A DNA stretch of 64,000 nt from Lama glama (Eukaryota). The stretch covers positions 53,012,001 to 53,076,000 of the forward strand of contig CM052816.1 in the NCBI GenBank assembly GCA_028534125.1, written 5' to 3'. This document shows positions 10,941 through 54,529 of the stretch, piece after piece. How positions within the stretch are numbered: the first letter of the stretch is position 1; every line of letters begins with the position of its first letter. Position numbers and translations under genes: made by a program. Below the pieces are notes generated by a model that saw only the letters and a list, made by a program, of their open reading frames with translations, had not been told where the DNA came from and did no database searches.

Positions 10941-11122
10941 GGGGAGGGGATAGCTCAGTGGTAGAGCACGTGCTTAGCATGTACGAGGTCCTGGGTTCAA
11001 TCTGCAGTACCTCTGTTAATAAATGAATAAATATAGCTAATTAGCTTCCTCCTCTTCCCCCAGAATAGGCCAGAAAAGGAAAAATCCTTGCAACTTCAGA
11101 GAAATAATAAAAAAGAAATAAT
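10941..11122 (+). mobile_element. tRNA-derived SINE (camelid vic-1-like) with extended tail
   Basis: A box tagctcagtgg, B box gggttcaatc, A-rich tail. Imperfect TSD aaagccgtgcttg (10925) / aaagtagtgcttg (11123). Confidence 0.85.
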
Positions 11123-19410: not shown

Positions 19411-19541
19411 GGGGGAAGGTATAGCTAGTGGTAGAGTGTGTGCTTAGCATGCATGAGGTCCTGGGTTCAATCCCCAGTACCTACATTAAAATAAATACCT
19501 ACCTACCTAATTACCTCCCCCCAAAAAATAAAATTTAAAAA
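19411..19541 (+). mobile_element. tRNA-derived SINE (vic-1-like)
   Basis: gggggaaggtatagctagtggtagag...ctgggttcaatccccagtacc...cctaattacctcccccc, followed by an A tail. Confidence 0.9.
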
Positions 19542-19620: not shown

Positions 19621-19709
19621 TTTTTTGGAGGGAGTAGGGAGGTAATTAGGTTTATTTATTTATTTATTTCTTAATTAAGGCATTCTACCACTGAGCTATA
19701 CCTTCCCCC
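19621..19709 (-). mobile_element. Internally deleted vic-1-like SINE with perfect 14-bp TSD
   Basis: TATTGTAACTGATT at 19607-19620 and 19710-19723. The A box is present, the B-box region is missing, and the 3' cctaattacctccc motif is present. Confidence 0.88.
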
Positions 19710-25000: not shown

Positions 25001-25140
25001 GAGTCAGCAGGCGGGGATCTTCAGTCTCCTTTAACACCAGAAAGTATCAATGGGACAGATGATGAGAGAACACCTGATGTGACACAGAACTCCGAGCCAA
25101 GGCCTGAACCGACTCAGAATGCATTGTCATTTTCACATAG
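25001..25140 (+). CDS. HOMER1: HOMER1 coding exon 5 (140 nt, phase 0-2), contains Homer1 P-motif SPLTP (25025-25039)
   Basis: Long poly-T acceptor ttttaaag|GAG, donor TAG|gtacag. Translates ESAGGDLQSPLTPESINGTDDERTPDVTQNSEPRPEPTQNALSFSH(S/R). Confidence 0.97.
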
Positions 25141-25174
25141 GTACAGATTCAATTCAACCATCATGATTAAGTAA
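25141..25174 (+). CDS. HOMER1: Homer1a-specific C-terminal tail (exon 5 read-through into intron 5), (R)YRFNSTIMIK*; predicted 186-aa protein
   Basis: In-frame continuation AGG TAC AGA TTC AAT TCA ACC ATC ATG ATT AAG TAA. Closely matches the rodent Homer1a tail as recalled (RYTFNSAIMIK). Confidence 0.92.
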
Positions 25175-31870: not shown

Positions 31871-33324
31871 GAAACAGTTTCCCTCACAGAAACTGAGTAC
31901 ATGCTCTGAATGCCCTTGGTACGGTGCTTCAGTCAGCTAAAGTTACACTGGTTCATAAGACCTTGAAGCTAAGATATAAAACTAGTTCTGTTTTTGAAAA
32001 GCAGTCAGTCTTACCAAACTTGAGATTTGAGTTTAACTGACTTAGTTTAAATTGTCTTCAAAGTTTCATAGTTTGTGTAAAGAAATTTTAAAGATAGTTT
32101 TATTAATAATGTTACTAAGTACCTAAATAATGTGAAGAATGCTAAAATGTGCATTTTCATTGTAACAGAATCATTTTCATTCTTTTCTTGAGAATAATTT
32201 TTCTTTTTATTTCAAAAGAAGTGCAGAGAACAATGATGTATTTTCTGTGAAATGAAGCAATATTTGTATTCTGTGGTTTTAAAACTGGTTATAACCACAG
32301 TGTTTTTAAAACTTTGATCTCTTATAAAGGCCAGAATAAGTACTTATTATTTGACTCAAAGAAGTGAATTTAGGGAATATAGAATTTTTTTAATTGAGAA
32401 TTTTACTATGTACATTTGGCAAAAGTAAAGATGAGGGCCAACTTGTGCTTTGTGGGGTAACACATTAGCCTCACATTTATGCAAATAAGCTGACAATTCA
32501 CTGAAATGTATTGAAAGTAGTCATGTTTCAGGGCCTACTTTCCTTGTAGAGTGTGTAAAATGTAAATGTGACTAAACAGTTGAAATCCATGTAAATTTTA
32601 CTTTATTTGTTTTTTATCAGTTTTCCATTTTCCTTTGACAGTTTAGATTAGCCATATATCCAGTGTAGACAAAATAGTTTGATTTTTTTTTTAATGACTC
32701 TGTCCTAAATTGAAGTCTAAATGTTGATTTTAGAACTTTGGAGATAGAAGGAACTTGCACTACTAAATAGTCCAGACACTTCATTTTACAGGAACGGAAG
32801 CAAGTCCAGGGAAGAGGCGTTCAGCGTCACTATTTGCCCATGGCTAAATTAGACCAGAGAGGACTCCTGAGTCATTGATCATTAGGGTCCATCCTAGTTG
32901 AGGCAGCCCTCCTTCTACTAAACTTCAAGAGGATTTATTTTCTGTATCACATTTCCAGATACTCATTGTCTCATTTTTATCATCGTTCAACACACATTTA
33001 TCACCACTTACTAAATTCCCCTGCTAGGTTCTTAGCTTCTGGCTAAGCCTGATTGACTTGCATTTCTTGGTAGCCCATATTGTTGTTTCTAGTCACTTAG
33101 GCATGTAATAGATAGGAAATAAATGTGTGAAAAAAGAATGTACATGCTTTTATTGTTACTGAGATGACAGGGGTATATAAGTTGGTACAACTTGATTATT
33201 AGCATCAGAAAACATACATATACTAGGAATGGCTAACAAATATACCAATATGAAGAATAATTAGTTTACCTTTTTAATTCTAATGGGGTCTACTTACCTA
33301 TTAACATTCCCATATCATTAATAG

Positions 33325-35540: not shown

Positions 35541-38500
35541 ATATTTAATATTTATTCTGGCTGGTTAGTGATTTCTTCCCCCTCAGTGGAAGCCCCAACA
35601 GTTATATAGAGAGATTTCCTTCATAGGTGCTTTGGCATCTATAATACGAGGTTAATGAAAAAGCATGTTAGCAAAAGTGACTTTAGAAAGTATATTCAAT
35701 CCTTTGGCTTAATTGTTTTTTGTAATTGGATCATTTTAGGGTATGCTTTACTCACAGGCTAAGTTACTATTGAAGAGACAACCTAAAGCCTCTCTGCTCT
35801 ATGAAATAATAGACTTTTTTCCTCTAGATATATAGAGAATAGATATTAGTAATTTGTTAAATTATATGAAGAAGCACATAATTGGGTGTTACCTGAGTCC
35901 AAAACACTGCTATTGTATGGTAGTCATACCTTTGCAGCTTCTTTTAAAAGGCATAGCTAAGCCATCCTGTCATTATTATATATTGTCACAAAGTCTTAGT
36001 TTCCGTAGCAAGGAAGATGTACTGTATCTTAGAGGTCTCACAGCCCACAGTACCTACTAGGTGTCAAGCCCTGAACTAGACGTGTATCATGTTTTAGTTT
36101 TTTGGAGAGAAATAGGTGTCTTGGGCAGAAACAATAAAGAAGAAATTGGACTCACTTCCCTTTCCCGACTTCCCACTTCTGTGACCACATCTAGTTTTGG
36201 AACATAGTGGAGTCACCATTTCTCATGGAAGAAGAAGATCTGCAGTTTAGCCTAATTGAAAAGATGCAAATAGTCCCTGACTGAGAGACTAACTAACATG
36301 GAAGAAACATAACACTTTAAAAAGACCCAATCATCACAGATTTAACTTTGAAGAGTCAAAAGAACTGTACTTAACTGTAAGAATTCCTGAGTATGCCTAG
36401 ATAGCATTTAAGATATCTCTGATTAGAAAAGGAAAAAATGACTTGGCGTGGCATCCTGTGTTTTGTTCCTTTGGCAAAATGCTATTATACTTGCTCCACA
36501 TAATTTTCAGAAGTCTTAAAAGCTCTTGATGGAGAAAATGTTCTGTTTCTTAAAAATCAAAATAGCTATTATTCCTGATAAAGATAGTGAAAAAATAAGC
36601 AACCTGATTTTTCTGGACTTCAAAGTAGAACTCGTTCATAGATGCTGCTTCTTTTAAGACTTTAATGTAGCTATTTTCCTACATGTAATCTGATACTCAT
36701 ATCTTGGTCCATTTCTTTTCTCGTCACCTCACAGGGATGTTGTGAGGCAAATTTTAAATGTTCCTAAGAAAAGTGTAGAATTAATAACTCTTGACTGTCT
36801 CTGTTGATAGTTTATACAATCGTAAGATTTTTATCTTAAAAGTTACAAGTGCTTTCCTATAGTTATAAATGGATTTTAGGTGTAATAAAATGGAAATAGA
36901 GAATGAAGTTGTATTTGATTTATCACTGAGCATCGTTGTAAATAATTTAACTGCATTAATTGTTGCATTGTTTTTTTTTCCAACCAAAAGCTTTTATACA
37001 ATTATAATTAAAGAACAGTAAAAGTGTCTGTTTTCCCCTTTAATTTAGTTGAGATTTAATTATTCATATCTCTTAGATAAAAGGTAATCCAACTCATCAA
37101 TTTCTAATGAAGAGAAAATGAAAACTACAATGAAATAGATATAGTTTAAAGGAAAAAAATCATAGAGATGCCCAGAATTCAGACTTTGAATAAAACTCTA
37201 TATTATTAGGTAGAGGTGACATTTTAGTAATATTTTCACTAAAAATAAGAATAGAGAGATGATAAGCACTTGCTTTACCTCACAGTAAAAAGAGTTAGAA
37301 AAATTACGTTACTAAATAAAGGAAATATGTTTAAGTATTAGTTAAAATTCATGTATAGAAAATTTTTGATAGCCTGCAGAATTTGATTTCATTTGTACAA
37401 TTTCATTTTTATAACATATTTTGGAAAGTAATTGTATAACATTTTCTCCTCCGCATAAATCAACCAACCCAGTTTTTGCAAATCAAACAGATATAGCACA
37501 TGAATTATCTGATAATGGCTCCCAGAGCAAGGTTTTTAAATTGCTGTCAAATGTCTATTTTCTACTGCTTTATTCTCACTGTGTATAGTATCAAAAGAGA
37601 AATCAATTCAAAGTTAACTTATGGATTCAGGCATATAACCTGGCATTTATAAACAACTAATTTAGAAAATCTTTTCTAAATTACCATATTATTTAAATAT
37701 TTGTTTTATAACTTATTCTATATGCTATAAAAATGGGAATGGATATAGTCTTAGGTTAAGTGTGTTGGTATCAAGAAAGCACTTGAAATTAGAATGTTGT
37801 ATTTTTTGTATGCCTCACTTAAAAAAAATTTAATACCTTTAAATGAACCTTGTACACTTCACTTCACCAGAGATCCTGCTACTCCCTACTGTCATATATA
37901 CCTCAGTTCACTCACTTATGTTGTTTAAGTTGTTAATTTACTTGATTTGTATGGTGGGAGTAACTATAGAAGGGGCCTTTCTTTGGCTAACTCAGTTTAT
38001 CCCTCTTTTCAACATTTTCATAGTTTGCCTTCATTTAAGCATTGTATGCATACATTCATACCTACTACTGATATGAATGATATAAATTGGCTCATAGTAT
38101 ATTATTCTTCCGGTTTAATGCTGGTATGTTTGAATACTGCAGCTAGAATAACAATTTGGAAATTCTAACCTCATAATAATGAGGAAAGCACCATGTAAAC
38201 AGTGAGCTAGTTTGAGGATAATTATGAAATTAGTGATAAAATTTATGTATAAGCATTAATAAAAATAAGGCTCCTTTTAAAATAATTCTGAACCTGGTTC
38301 CTTTTGCCCATACTGATACTTTTTTAACATTAAAAATGATATCTAATTGAGATAAGTTATTTTTTATTAAAAAAATTAGAATGTTTTTCTTTTCCCCCCA
38401 AATATGATAGCATCTAATACAATATGTGTATTCTTCTAACCAATCTATCATAGAAAGCAAATATTAAAGTTGGTAAACATGTGCTTCAGAAATAATGAAG

Positions 38501-46725: not shown

Positions 46726-47762
46726 TGCCTTTTTAAAGTGAGCTGTAATAGACGTGTAACGTTGTGTTAGTTTTTGGTGTACGTGAGCCTGTACTTTTAA
46801 TCGCTGTTTCACAGCTGGTTCTTGCTTCATGTGTTCTTTTAACAAAATTCTTTACAACTCAGATACTTCTATTTATAGATTCATACAGTTATGCATTACA
46901 TATTTTGAAATAATTTGTTTCAGATTAATTTTATAACTTCCTCAGAAAAGTCAATGGTATTTCAGTTTCTTTACCAGAACTAAGTGAAATTCTGTTTTAG
47001 AATCTAATTTCAGATGCCTTTGTTAAGACACACTATTACTTACATACTACCAAGAAAAAACATTGTCAATTAAACTGATGGTAACAGTGCTTTCAGATGT
47101 ATTTAGACATAGATGTTAATATATCTGTGTAACACTTTTGTATGCATGTAAAATAAAATAAACAGTTTAAGATATTCCTATAATATCATCAGATTCAGAG
47201 TAGACCTCTTCTGCTTCACTCATTGACTTTTTTGACTCTAATCTATGTCCAGTTTTTCAACCCAATATCATTTTTGGGGGCTACCAGTAACATTGGTGAT
47301 ACAGTGCTTCTTTAAAAACTAGTTCACTCTTGTCTCTGAGACTTTCTTCTGAGCCATTGTTTATTGAAAGCTTTAATACTTAAATTCCAATTCAGTTCTA
47401 AAAACTGTGTTTCCCAGAGTATGACCATGTGATTTCCAGTTCACTACAGGGCTTTCTTTAAACCTTTATCGGCAAATTTATCTTTATCTGTTTATCAGTA
47501 GCCATCGGTTTCTATATTGTATGTTAATCTGGACACACCAGGCTATGTGCAAAGATAATAGAGTGTGAGGCAGGGGAGGAATCTGAGCTGGAAAGTAAGA
47601 CTTGGGAGAATATCAAGGCAAACAGTGAAAGCAAATGGTCAGAGGAGGCAGCGTTTAGAAGCAGATGCCAACAAGAGGGTAAGGAACGGAGCAGTGGGAA
47701 CAGATGATAAGACGACCCCCAAGGATAAGGAAGTTAATGAGTTGCCAAAACTACAGTAAGCT

Positions 47763-47855
47763 TTTTTTTTTCTTTTTAGTGCAGGTACTGGAGATTGAAC
47801 CCAGGACCTTATGTATGCCAAGCATGCACTCTACCACTGAGCTATACCCACCCCC
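47763..47855 (-). mobile_element. Short tRNA-derived SINE (vic-1-like) with 12-bp imperfect TSD
   Basis: Reverse complement reads gggggtgggtatagctcagtggtagag...ctgggttcaatctccagtacc plus poly-A. TSD ctacagtaagct (47751) / ctgcaataagct (47856). Confidence 0.9.
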
Positions 47856-50367
47856 CTGCAATAAGCTCTGAGAGACACCTTGTTAATATAGCATTTAGGC
47901 AAACTGAGGCTTGCACCTACACCTAGCAGAAAAGTCCTTTCATATACTGGGCTCTTTAAATACTGTTTATAAACAACGCAGAATTACTCTGTTTTCATTT
48001 AAGAGGTATTTCTTTCCTTTGAAAGGATAACTTACACTGTATTAAGAAACACCTTTACACCCTAAACTGTTTCTTCAGAAAGCATTAATTTCTAAGTGGA
48101 ACTAGCTTAGGGCCAGTAGTCCACCATGAGCACCTACCCCAGAAGGCGGCTCGCAGACAGGTGAAAGTCCATGGTGACTGCTTCTGCGTTCACAGGTGTG
48201 GAGGGGGAGGGAAGCTGACGACAGGCAGATCCTGAGATAAGGCAGTATTATGGGGTGCTCAGTTCAGCTCTCTTTCATAGTTAGGGAGTAACCTTATTAC
48301 CAGTGCTGAAATTAATGTGGAGAAGTAAGCCTGTTGCAACCTATTCTTAAATCCTCTATTAAAAGCTTATCAGGATATTTCACACAGTTCTATGTATTAA
48401 CATGCTTAGGAAGTATATGCAAGGAGCTGCCACTCCAGAGACTCTGATGGTGGATCCTGAGGCCTGGAGGTGTGCAAGAGAGGTAGCTCTCTTCAATTCT
48501 GTTAGTGACCATTCACGTGTAGGATTCACTCCGCAGGATAAATAAGTGCATTGCTCATGCATGAGACTCTTATTTTGGTAGATAGTCTATTTGTTAGATA
48601 GTACTTTTGAAATACTTTTTCTTCTAGATTTTATATAACTTAATGAAGTTTACCAATCACTTACAGAAAGAACTTTGACTTTAAAGGAAAACAATAAAAT
48701 TCCAGTTTAAAGAATCTTTCCAATGATGTTTTTGCAGTGTTTTGAACTCTCTCATCTGACTTCTAGATCTGAAGCCAACAGGAAACCAGCTGGTCCTTTT
48801 AGAAGGGAAACGTTACCAAATAGTCACAAGAATAAAGAATTATTTTGCCCTATTCCAGCATTCAGACATGAGATCATAGTGGTATTTCAGTATCTCTTCT
48901 GACTCACTGGTGTCTCCAGCTAAACAATTTCTTTGTGAACAGTTTATATTTTTACTTACCGTGAAACTATCAACACTATACTTGTAAAAAAAAAAGGGGG
49001 GGAGGGGGTGCATATTAGCAGCCAGAGAACCCCCCTCCTTTTTTAAACAATGCTGACTTAAAATTTTGGTATCAGAACTAATCCCAAGGTATTAATTACT
49101 GCTAAAAATTAGTCTGTTGGGGAGGAATATGAAATCTTAGAGTTGTGGATTAAATCAAGGAACATTGTTTTTGCAAAATTGCAAAAGTGTGCCAAGTATT
49201 TTAAATTATATGTAAAGACTGAACAAATCTAAGATAACAGATAGCTCACATGTAGAACTTCGTTCAGGACACTCCAGAGTTCATTGTCAACTGAAATTGT
49301 GGAGGGTGTTCTGATGTACTAGATGGTGAAAGGAATATATGAAGAAACTGTAAAGAGAAGACAGAGCAGATTGACAAAAATCAAAAGCATTGTATTTCCT
49401 CCACTCTGTTTCACACGGTGCTCTAGAAAGACAGATTATTAAAGAAATAGCTCATAAAGCAGAAGCAGCAAGAATGTTCTGAAAGTTTCAGATTTACCAA
49501 CAGAGATGAAATTTTCGTTGGTAATTGTAAAATAACCTTGAAAACATGTATTTCTTTACCTTGGAAACAAATACTAAGAAAAATGCAGAAACAAAAACTT
49601 AGCGTTGAACTGCCTGCCTTTAGTACTCATTTCAGGACCATTAAATCTCAAATTGTTATTGTTTACTGTACTCTTATTCAGTATGCATAAAAGCATTTGA
49701 TATGACAGTCTTCTTCAATATTTATTTTCTTCTTTAAGTGCAATGAGCAGTACTTTGGAGCTCTGCAGAGGAAAGAAAAGAAAGGTTAATGGGAATCCAT
49801 TGAACAGCTTAACTGTGGCGAGACATCACTACTTAATATATTAGATGCTCAAGACACATTCTTGGATATGAAGTAAACAAGTTATAGTATACGAAGACTT
49901 TGTATGTTCATCTTTTTCTATCCCTTCCAGAGGCGTCGTTTCAAATTTTTCTTGCCCAAAGCAGTTTTAACTGCACCTTGTCTATGTCCTGTTCCTTTCC
50001 TTTTCATATCCTTGCCTCTATAATTCTACTTCTCCTATCTGCTTCTTATCACTATCTCCAGATGCCCTCACCTCCTTCCTTTTATTTTCACCTCTTTTAT
50101 TATGTGTCACAGCTATTCTGTTTCCTGCCCACCCAGTCTCTTCTCTGCCAACAAATACAGACATGAATGGAGCAGCTTAGAGATCATTCTACCCCTTTTA
50201 AGAAGACCTGAGTTTTCAGCTCTTTATTATTTGTAGTCCTACAGTCACAGGAAGAGTTATCTGGGAGTTCTTAGAAAGAATTTTTTTTTTCTTTTAGTTG
50301 TGTGATAATTTTTTTTTTAATTTCACATATTGCTGGTTTTATTTTGTGTGTGTGTGTGTGATAATAT

Positions 50368-53180: not shown

Positions 53181-54199
53181 GCTTTAAAAATCTTGATGAT
53201 AGAAACTATGCTTTCTTTTATATAATGTATATGTTAAAATTACTATAAAATATCAGTCCAGCAAAACATTTGGTCTGTGATGCAAATGACTTACCAAAAA
53301 CCAAAATGCTTATTAAAGAAAGCTATTATCATTAGTTAGTTAATTGGATGTGGTTAGTAGAATTTCACTAATAGGAATAAACTTTCAATAATGAGAAAGA
53401 GAAGCCGCCTTTTTCTTTGAAGTAAGGCAGTTCTTTCTTCATTGGAAAATTAAGAAAGGAGTTATCAAGAGAGGGGTCTTCTCACTTAATAGAATTGTCT
53501 TTATAATAGAAAATTGTCTTTGTTGAGGTACTTAACTCTGGACAAATTATCAAGTAGAACATTAAATGAGGAAAAAAGTGATTGCTTTAGTTTTGTTCTA
53601 TAAGTGATAACTGGAATTCTATCAGAACTTAAGTCAGAACCAATTTATAGGTCTAGCCTATCATGTGAAATCAATTTATTGCAGCAAACTTTGGTATTTT
53701 TCACATTTTAAAATTCTGAGTAAAATGAAATAAATCAACAATTTCAAAAGAAATACTACATTATATGTTCCAAACCTTATTGACATTGAAGCATCTTCTT
53801 ATGTTTCATATGAAGGAATGAAATTGTACTTCAGGCTTTGATACTCTTTAAAAAAATAGAGTACATTGTTAGGTTTTGTTTGTAGGTATTTTTCAAGATA
53901 CAATTTCATGTTTATTCCTCAAAAAAATAGGTAGAGACTCTTTTGTGGATACTTATATCTGTCATAATGATGGAAAGTCTTCCATGTTAAGCCTTCTACT
54001 TCGGTAATTTTTATATTTCTTTAGTTGGTAGGTTTTATTCACTTGGAACATCTCAGTGAAGTGTATGTGTTTTTATTTTTGAGTGGTTGTCTTTGAAACA
54101 TTCATGGATTACAAACCACATAACAGAACTGAGTACTGCTTTCTCTTCAAATGACAATATTCAGTGGAATGGGTAGAATTTTATTTTCTTTTATTTTAG

Positions 54200-54356
54200 T
54201 TCAGCAATCAGCAAACATTGGGAGGCTGAACTGGCTACCCTCAAAGGAAATAACGCCAAACTCACTGCAGCTCTGTTGGAGTCCACTGCCAACGTGAAAC
54301 AATGGAAACAGCAACTTGCTGCGTATCAAGAGGAAGCAGAACGTCTGCACAAGCGG
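54200..54356 (+). CDS. HOMER1: HOMER1 coding exon 6 (157 nt, phase 2-0), start of coiled coil of long isoforms
   Basis: Acceptor ttattttag|T, donor CGG|gtaagt. Translates (S)SAISKHWEAELATLKGNNAKLTAALLESTANVKQWKQQLAAYQEEAERLHKR. Confidence 0.97.
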
Positions 54357-54529
54357 GTAAGTTCAGGGCTGCTGTCGATAAGGATTTATGGCTAACATAT
54401 TTCCTCGATCAGAGGAAATTTACATATAGATTCAGCACAGGGATATCTTCTGGAGGCTTTTGTTGGTTATCAAAACATGTATATGGTTGTATTACACATG
54501 GGTTTATTAGTTAAGAAAAACATTTTCTG

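Follow-up and report, generated by a model that had tools for sequence, protein, structure and literature searches.

The window analyzed in this work, a stretch of 64,000 nucleotides from Lama glama, carries the mammalian gene HOMER1 on its plus strand. Two of its exons enclose intron 5, which is 29 kb long (from the end of exon 5 to position 54200).

25001..25140, plus strand: HOMER1 exon 5, ending in phase 2
54200..54357, plus strand: HOMER1 exon after intron 5 (SAISKHWE...), end approximate

The exon-5 end is the same in a Camelus RefSeq protein (P0218), and the native donor at 25141 is weak, with 5/9 consensus matches. P0218 is the sole camelid short isoform that we saw; its tail maps to window positions 32790-32849 (18/20 residues matching), and it uses an intron-5 acceptor other than either of the two AGs in the SINE described below. 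Coverage of PDB structures stops in the middle of exon 5. In rodents, the long isoform Homer1c has a 12-residue insert at residue 177 (excerpts of PMC5323044). According to excerpts of PMC13522067, the insert is encoded by a 36-bp rodent exon 6 that human does not have, and Homer1c is the prevalent long form in mouse brain.

Rfam found a single tRNA-like stretch in intron 5. It belongs to an ordinary intronic SINE at 47751-47867, inserted antisense to HOMER1, whose head, tail and target-site duplication identify it as a camelid tRNA-Ala-derived simple SINE of the vic-1 type.

47780..47855, minus strand: SINE head, tRNA-Ala-derived, with a short G-rich 5' extension (Rfam, ARAGORN)
47762..47777, minus strand: A-rich SINE tail, a polypyrimidine tract when read on the HOMER1 strand
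47751..47762, plus strand: target-site duplication, tail-side copy, 10/12 identity to 47856-47867
47856..47867, plus strand: target-site duplication, head-side copy, 10/12 identity to 47751-47762

The tRNA-like head (47780-47851, minus strand) scores 49.5 bits against the Rfam tRNA model over model positions 1-71 and is labeled tRNA-Ala by ARAGORN. As in the SINEBase definition of a simple SINE, the head is tRNA-like over at least 60 nt, the tail adjoins it with no body in between, and a target-site duplication is present. An automated repeat search of the window did not report the 47751-62/47856-67 duplication; its 10/12 agreement has a chance of 0.0027 over 6x6 offsets and bears out the claim of the first-pass annotation that the element has a duplication of its own. 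Folding of the head gave no signal (z 0.88). In SINEBase, vic-1 is the simple SINE of camels (PMC3531059, in part), and our assignment goes by build (tRNA-like head, direct A-rich tail, target duplication, copies of 79-88% similarity) and by host.

The window holds further copies of the same element, which serve as controls for everything that might seem particular to the copy in intron 5.

10943..11015, plus strand: control copy of the SINE in intron 2, full copy
19415..19485, plus strand: control copy of the SINE in intron 4, full copy
19678-19709: 5' fragment of the SINE

The heads are 46-51/58 identical (79-88%), and the density amounts to three full copies and one fragment per 64 kb (the SINEBase criterion is at least 100 per genome). 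All three full copies have a TGA at the antisense B box and an AG|GT at the antisense acceptor stem, and hence these are family traits or the result of recurrent decay and do not mark the locus; the idea that the TGA is a lesion of the 47.8-kb copy was rejected for the same reason. In two of the three, an AG is placed so that splicing from a phase-2 exon would yield the Homer1c frame. At the density observed in the window (three copies in 64 kb, which is a small sample), an antisense copy would be expected in intron 5 with a probability of 0.49, and one with a same-frame AG with a probability of about 0.36. The first-pass annotation regarded the camelid copy as a notable parallel to Homer1c, which is not supported given these family-wide features and this base rate. 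Its proposal that a similar simple SINE inserted independently in the camelid lineage fared better: SINEBase describes ID and vic-1 as simple SINEs that resemble each other but arose independently (PMC3531059, in part), and the camelid duplication is well kept. On the same grounds we rejected the idea that the camelid and rodent elements are orthologous.

Why does a camelid SINE then resemble the rodent insert? The Homer1c peptide that the first-pass annotation used for the comparison is right for rat, while mouse has A for the second G. Among 201 Homer1 proteins compared (120 of the 216 matches listed, plus cluster members), 42 carry the insert; the 33 named carriers are all myomorph rodents (murids, cricetids and jerboa), and the other nine are unnamed transcript assemblies. 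The long forms that we saw from squirrel, guinea pig and mole-rat are without it. The insert varies by three single changes only and is identical in rat and jerboa, which suggests purifying selection. In these records and the excerpted literature, rodent exon 6 is restricted to its lineage and spliced in mRNA, with three divergent, lone non-rodent models remaining (see below).

The rodent insert itself reads like an antisense tRNA-Ala. When the rat-type 11-mer was scored against all frames of both window strands, with stops penalized and no tuning, the three SINE copies ranked on top (32, 26 and 25; the next window scored 20). These copies are 6-7 base changes away from encoding the insert, compared with at least 9 for the other 127,927 windows. 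A search of viral and metagenome contigs with the exact back-translated pattern returned no locus. Relaxing it at four bases and the last one, a choice made with the tRNA in mind, gave three metagenome loci, of which two were called tRNA-Ala and the third is a tRNA-Ala-like 3' part; the relaxed patterns had no match in viral contigs or prokaryote genomes. Two metagenome loci read AGDRTQGLIHA, identical to the insert at 10/11 residues (score 51, chance approximately 1e-13 per random window). A short pattern of 8 codons had four viral matches, none of them tRNA-like, which is chance level, so the 8-residue core alone proves nothing.

A second line of evidence does not depend on how the pattern was relaxed. 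Two proteins, one from mouse (P0183, BAE23253.1) and one from Arvicanthis (P0219), continue beyond the cassette and read AGDRTQ[A/G]LSHA-RQVPYC-stop, which shows that the rodent element extends into the flanking intron on the downstream side. The camelid copies continue with K-H-[A/T/V]-L-Y-H-stop, and in 3/3 the stop falls at the same codon as in the rodent tail. Over its 21 nt the read-through tail differs from the camelid copies by 5, 6 and 7 changes, fits that 42, 261 and 1037 of 127,958 background windows reach; its fit to the three metagenome tRNA loci is poorer (8, 7 and 11 of 21). The proposal that the Homer1c cassette is an exonized antisense tRNA-derived element is thus supported at the peptide level by the 10/11 identity to antisense tRNA-Ala and the in-register read-through tail. 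Judged from these sequence comparisons, we are confident that the rodent exon is derived from an antisense tRNA-Ala-type element, and at the peptide level the 36 nt correspond to its antisense B-box-to-anticodon part.

Which element was it? ID, with the sequence and tRNA-Ala origin that we take it to have, is presumably the obvious rodent family, and we consider it the likely source. The residues R-Q-V that follow an exon ending in AG imply an intron start of GCARGT, which would be a GC donor of otherwise full consensus. In 6/6 tRNA-Ala-type sequences compared, the exon end has AA (K after H-A) where the rodent exon needs AG, which suggests that the rodent element is a derived form. Alternatively, the ancestor of the exon could be a tRNA-Ala pseudogene that was retroposed, or some other element with a tRNA-Ala head (the ID part of B4 would be one), and not a plain ID. 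This is compatible with the likeness found, for which tRNA-Ala sequences alone were compared, but it is unlikely given that none of the six reads R-Q-V and that R-T-Q-x4-A-R-Q-V stands in the same register in a gene model of guinea pig (P0135), pointing to a derived family present throughout rodents. Presumably, ID has the letters for AG and R-Q-V at the exon end, and we favor ID as the source.

The copy in the llama intron has some of the features required for splicing.

47778..47779, plus strand: cryptic acceptor AG1, in the Homer1c frame, stop 6 codons on, rank 38/1858 among intron-5 AGs
47783..47786, plus strand: cryptic acceptor AG2 with GT, in another frame open for 47 codons, rank 12/1858 among intron-5 AGs
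47786..47821, plus strand: 36-nt counterpart of the rodent Homer1c exon; 7 changes would make it encode the insert; preceded by no AG, followed by a poor GC site
47796..47798, plus strand: TGA in the Homer1c frame (antisense B box), also in the other two copies

Much of what the first-pass annotation read from this stretch is correct: the T tract, the AG at 47778-79 with the T at 47780 as first exonic base, the translation S-A-G-T-G-D-stop-T-Q-D-L-M-Y-A-K that follows on the phase-2 exon 5, the in-frame TGA at 47796-98, the second AG (47783-84) followed by GT, and the length of 181 aa for the AG1 product (the rat insert begins at A177). The leading A-G, which had been taken as a match to Homer1c, is out of register. 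The rodent A-G-D-R aligns with the camelid T-G-D-stop, which places AG1 6 nt upstream of the position of the rodent acceptor and makes the A-G match accidental.

The element provides an acceptor with a polypyrimidine tract, supplied by the SINE tail as would be expected of an antisense SINE. On an approximate splice matrix, AG1 and AG2 both score above the true exon-6 acceptor; AG2 outscores AG1 but gives a frame other than that of Homer1c. The site that matches the rodent donor is a GC that agrees with the consensus at 5/9 positions (in the other copies at 3 and 5); a fair GT is first reached 376-381 nt downstream of the SINE acceptors. With no donor that is likely to be usable, the copy would almost always be removed with intron 5, and rare use of AG1 would lead to a stop and probably to nonsense-mediated decay. 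Because the native exon-5 donor has 5/9 matches, so that this gene does employ weak sites, and the SINE acceptors outscore the true exon-6 acceptor, low-level use is not dismissible on scores. Nevertheless, judged from these approximate splice scores, the camelid copy is very probably ordinary and silent.

The copy might instead be used as a poison exon or a Homer1a-like terminal exon, yielding 181 aa from AG1 or 222 aa with a SINE-derived tail from AG2, which would make it a second exonization in the same intron. Both acceptors are in the top 2% of intron-5 AGs (on the approximate matrix), poly(A)-type hexamers occur at 48358 and 48693, and gene models of guinea pig, dolphins, rabbit, fruit bat and Camelus contain cryptic intron-5 exons. 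A share of up to 0.41 of the words from this intron region recurs in the RNA runs listed, none of which is labeled brain; such word shares are not evidence of exon use. A last exon starting at a camelid acceptor would keep EVH1 and drop the coiled coil, as in the intron-5-derived short forms Homer1a and Ania-3 (known to us from excerpts); in contrast to these, use of the camelid acceptors, its induction by activity and its conservation are hypothetical. We consider exon use improbable: there is no good donor within 370 nt, 11 other intron-5 AGs outscore AG2, a weak protein search with the AG2 reading found no record, and in mouse 8 of 18,022 intronic ID copies are exonized (table 2 of PMC2394776, in part). 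An extended version is equally improbable. It would make intron 5 a recurrent trap for antisense SINE exons, loosely defined through the weak donor of exon 5, on which the Homer1a switch relies. Mouse-like rodents would have fixed such an exon as Homer1c, guinea pig, dolphins and lagomorphs would have tried out others, and in camelids the tRNA-Ala SINE would be included as a poison exon or one like that of Homer1a, tuning the dose of long Homer.

The CAG|GT at 47783-86 was also considered as a functional recursive splice site. Its acceptor ranks 12/1858, and joining exon 5 there rebuilds a donor with 5/9 matches, equal to the native exon-5 donor. However, AG|GT is simply the antisense tRNA acceptor stem, intron 5 contains seven YAG|GT sites with pyrimidine tracts, the element is lineage-specific, and such use would leave the mRNA unchanged; we regard recursive splicing here as very improbable.

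The three non-rodent models with 12-residue inserts come from siamang (P0023), lynx (P0166) and the frog Leptobrachium (P0118) and score 28, 30 and 25 against rat; the lynx insert scores 34 against mouse. The chance of reaching the siamang and frog scores in a 29-kb intron is 0.01 and 0.04, respectively, if splice sites are not required, and drops to 3e-5 and 1e-4 if they are. Both the siamang and the frog insert have S-K at positions 5-6, and each of the two proteins forms a cluster of one member. Of the 33 matches to a query centered on the siamang junction, none from another primate or an amphibian carried an insert of this kind. Judged from the sequences, the three are probably artifacts of gene models steered by a rodent protein: their pairwise scores (14, 16 and 22) are below those of each against rodents, the lynx insert has the Ala found only in Mus, and in other gene models this gap is taken up by plain intron-end text. 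In addition, intron 5 of the window has no intact Homer1c cassette elsewhere, as had been claimed from the first reading; the Rfam scan points to the SINE only, and the best of 79 stop-free AG..GT/GC candidates of 36 nt reaches a score of 1, where the insert against itself scores 57. The above-chance scores of the three inserts (25-34) and the shared S-K might suggest that exon 6 is an ancient vertebrate micro-exon, retained by rodents, siamang, lynx and frog, whose likeness to a tRNA is coincidental, but this is scarcely credible in view of the 10/11 identity to antisense tRNA-Ala with its in-register intronic continuation, the single-member clusters, the poor mutual agreement and Mus-only Ala of the inserts, the plain intron-end text in other models, and the lack of a candidate in the camelid intron or in human (excerpts of PMC13522067).

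We therefore think it likely, taking both halves together, that the camelid copy is an ordinary SINE and that the Homer1c exon comes from an antisense tRNA-Ala-derived element, most likely ID; the camelid SINE would resemble the Homer1c insert because the Homer1c exon is itself antisense tRNA-Ala-derived. Under this hypothesis, tRNA-Ala-derived elements retroposed antisense into intron 5 in two lineages separately, as seen in the camelid and as we infer for the rodents. The rodent insertion, most likely of an ID SINE, would predate the split of jerboa from mice and hamsters. The rodent copy would have had a phase-2 AG directly before the B box, CGA and not TGA at the B box, and, as its read-through R-Q-V suggests, a near-consensus GC donor 36 nt on. 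These three features would have created a frame-keeping exon in the linker before the coiled coil, which selection may have kept and which could then have become the prevalent long isoform in mouse brain. At the matching positions the camelid family has neither the phase-2 AG nor the open B-box codon nor the donor, and splicing most likely discards its copy together with the intron. The camelid element and rodent ID/BC1 are alike as simple tRNA-derived SINEs (excerpts of PMC3531059), and the antisense reading fits the Homer1c insert; they differ in belonging to independent families and in that the camelid element does not have the bases on which the acceptor, open frame and donor of the rodent exon depend.

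Exonization of antisense SINEs (Alu, B1, B2, B4 and MIR) is well described: the poly-A tail acts as a polypyrimidine tract, an AG behind it is the usual acceptor, and there is a bias for the antisense orientation (Sela et al. 2007, PMC2394776, in part). Most such exons are minor, whereas Homer1c exon 6 keeps the frame and is prevalent in mouse brain (in the excerpts of these sources); it is also set apart by being nearly invariant from jerboa to mouse and by its presumed GC donor. It would be one of few ID exonizations, of which 8 were counted in mouse genes (PMC2394776, in part). Our literature searches found, among the matches listed, no paper stating a SINE or tRNA origin of the Homer1c insert, although lists of exonized elements and the repeat tracks of genome browsers may already show the overlap. 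One supplementary table of PMC2394776 has no Homer, and its mouse sheets have no ID row; the five supplementary files of PMC1479377 have no Homer either, nor does the word occur in the text available of the Merkin 2015 preprint. A paper-text search for cassette-like primer words returned none with Homer1. SINE exonization is thus a known process of which Homer1c would be a new case, and its status as unreported is provisional.

Homer1c, also called Vesl-1L or PSD-Zip45, is the long Homer1 of much rodent synapse work. An origin from a tRNA-Ala element would explain why human HOMER1 is without the 12 residues, and the exon would be a clear case of a young SINE exon turned into a major, conserved coding exon within a highly constrained synaptic scaffold. 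It also makes testable whether selection acts on the insert itself or only on its splicing. The camelid copy, alone of no importance, shows the unexonized state of such an element together with the three features that it is missing.

The Homer1 linker takes up new exons repeatedly: salamanders (P0078, P0102, P0104 and P0105) and gar and bowfin (P0110 and P0112) carry conserved inserts of their own, 18 and 22 residues long, which occupy the same exon 5/6 junction as the 12-residue rodent Homer1c insert but are unrelated to it. Additional inserts or tails occur at this junction in P0030 and P0008 (rabbit), P0046 (hare), P0070 (wallaby) and P0052 (titi monkey), and we presume from their appearance that these derive from repeats (C SINE, MIR-like and Alu). 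In guinea pig, isoform X6 of Cavia porcellus (P0135) continues directly after exon 5 with R-A-R-T-Q-D-C-L-L-A-R-Q-V-L, which, like the Homer1c insert, reads as the antisense strand of a tRNA-Ala-type sequence and keeps the Homer1c frame. This stretch differs from the camelid SINE copies by 7 to 9 changes in 36 nt.

Four intron 5 stretches of the window have counterparts in Homer1 records of other mammals.

Intron 5 stretches matched to mammalian Homer1 records
32790-32849, + strand: cryptic last exon of Camelus RefSeq isoform X8 (P0218), 18/20 residues matching the window
36195-36334, + strand: counterpart of the intron 5-derived tails in P0044 (rat) and P0048 (mouse), 59-71% match
47534-47702, + strand: ortholog of a fruit-bat exon in P0171 (Pteropus X2), 48% identity over 47 residues
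52243-52272, + strand: match to the unique end of the dolphin insert

The match to the rat and mouse tails indicates that intron 5 is partly alignable between camelids and rodents. The fruit-bat model joins its exon to exon 5; the orthologous stretch lies 50 to 220 nt upstream of the camelid SINE, and the AG at the start corresponding to the bat exon is absent from the camelid sequence. Models of three dolphin species (P0002, P0225, P0226 and P0227) have 54 extra residues, in frame, between exons 5 and 6. This insert resembles an antisense SINE, presumably of the CHR-2 family, and the match of its unique end in the window is a site distinct from the camelid SINE. Isoform X8, of 195 aa, is a Homer1a-like truncation ending in the cryptic last exon.

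Both splice sites flanking intron 5 are weak, the exon 5 donor at 25141 matching the consensus at 5/9 positions and the exon 6 acceptor at 54199 also scoring low, which fits with read-through producing Homer1a. Positions 25139-25173 still encode the complete Homer1a tail, RYRFNSTIMIK-stop.
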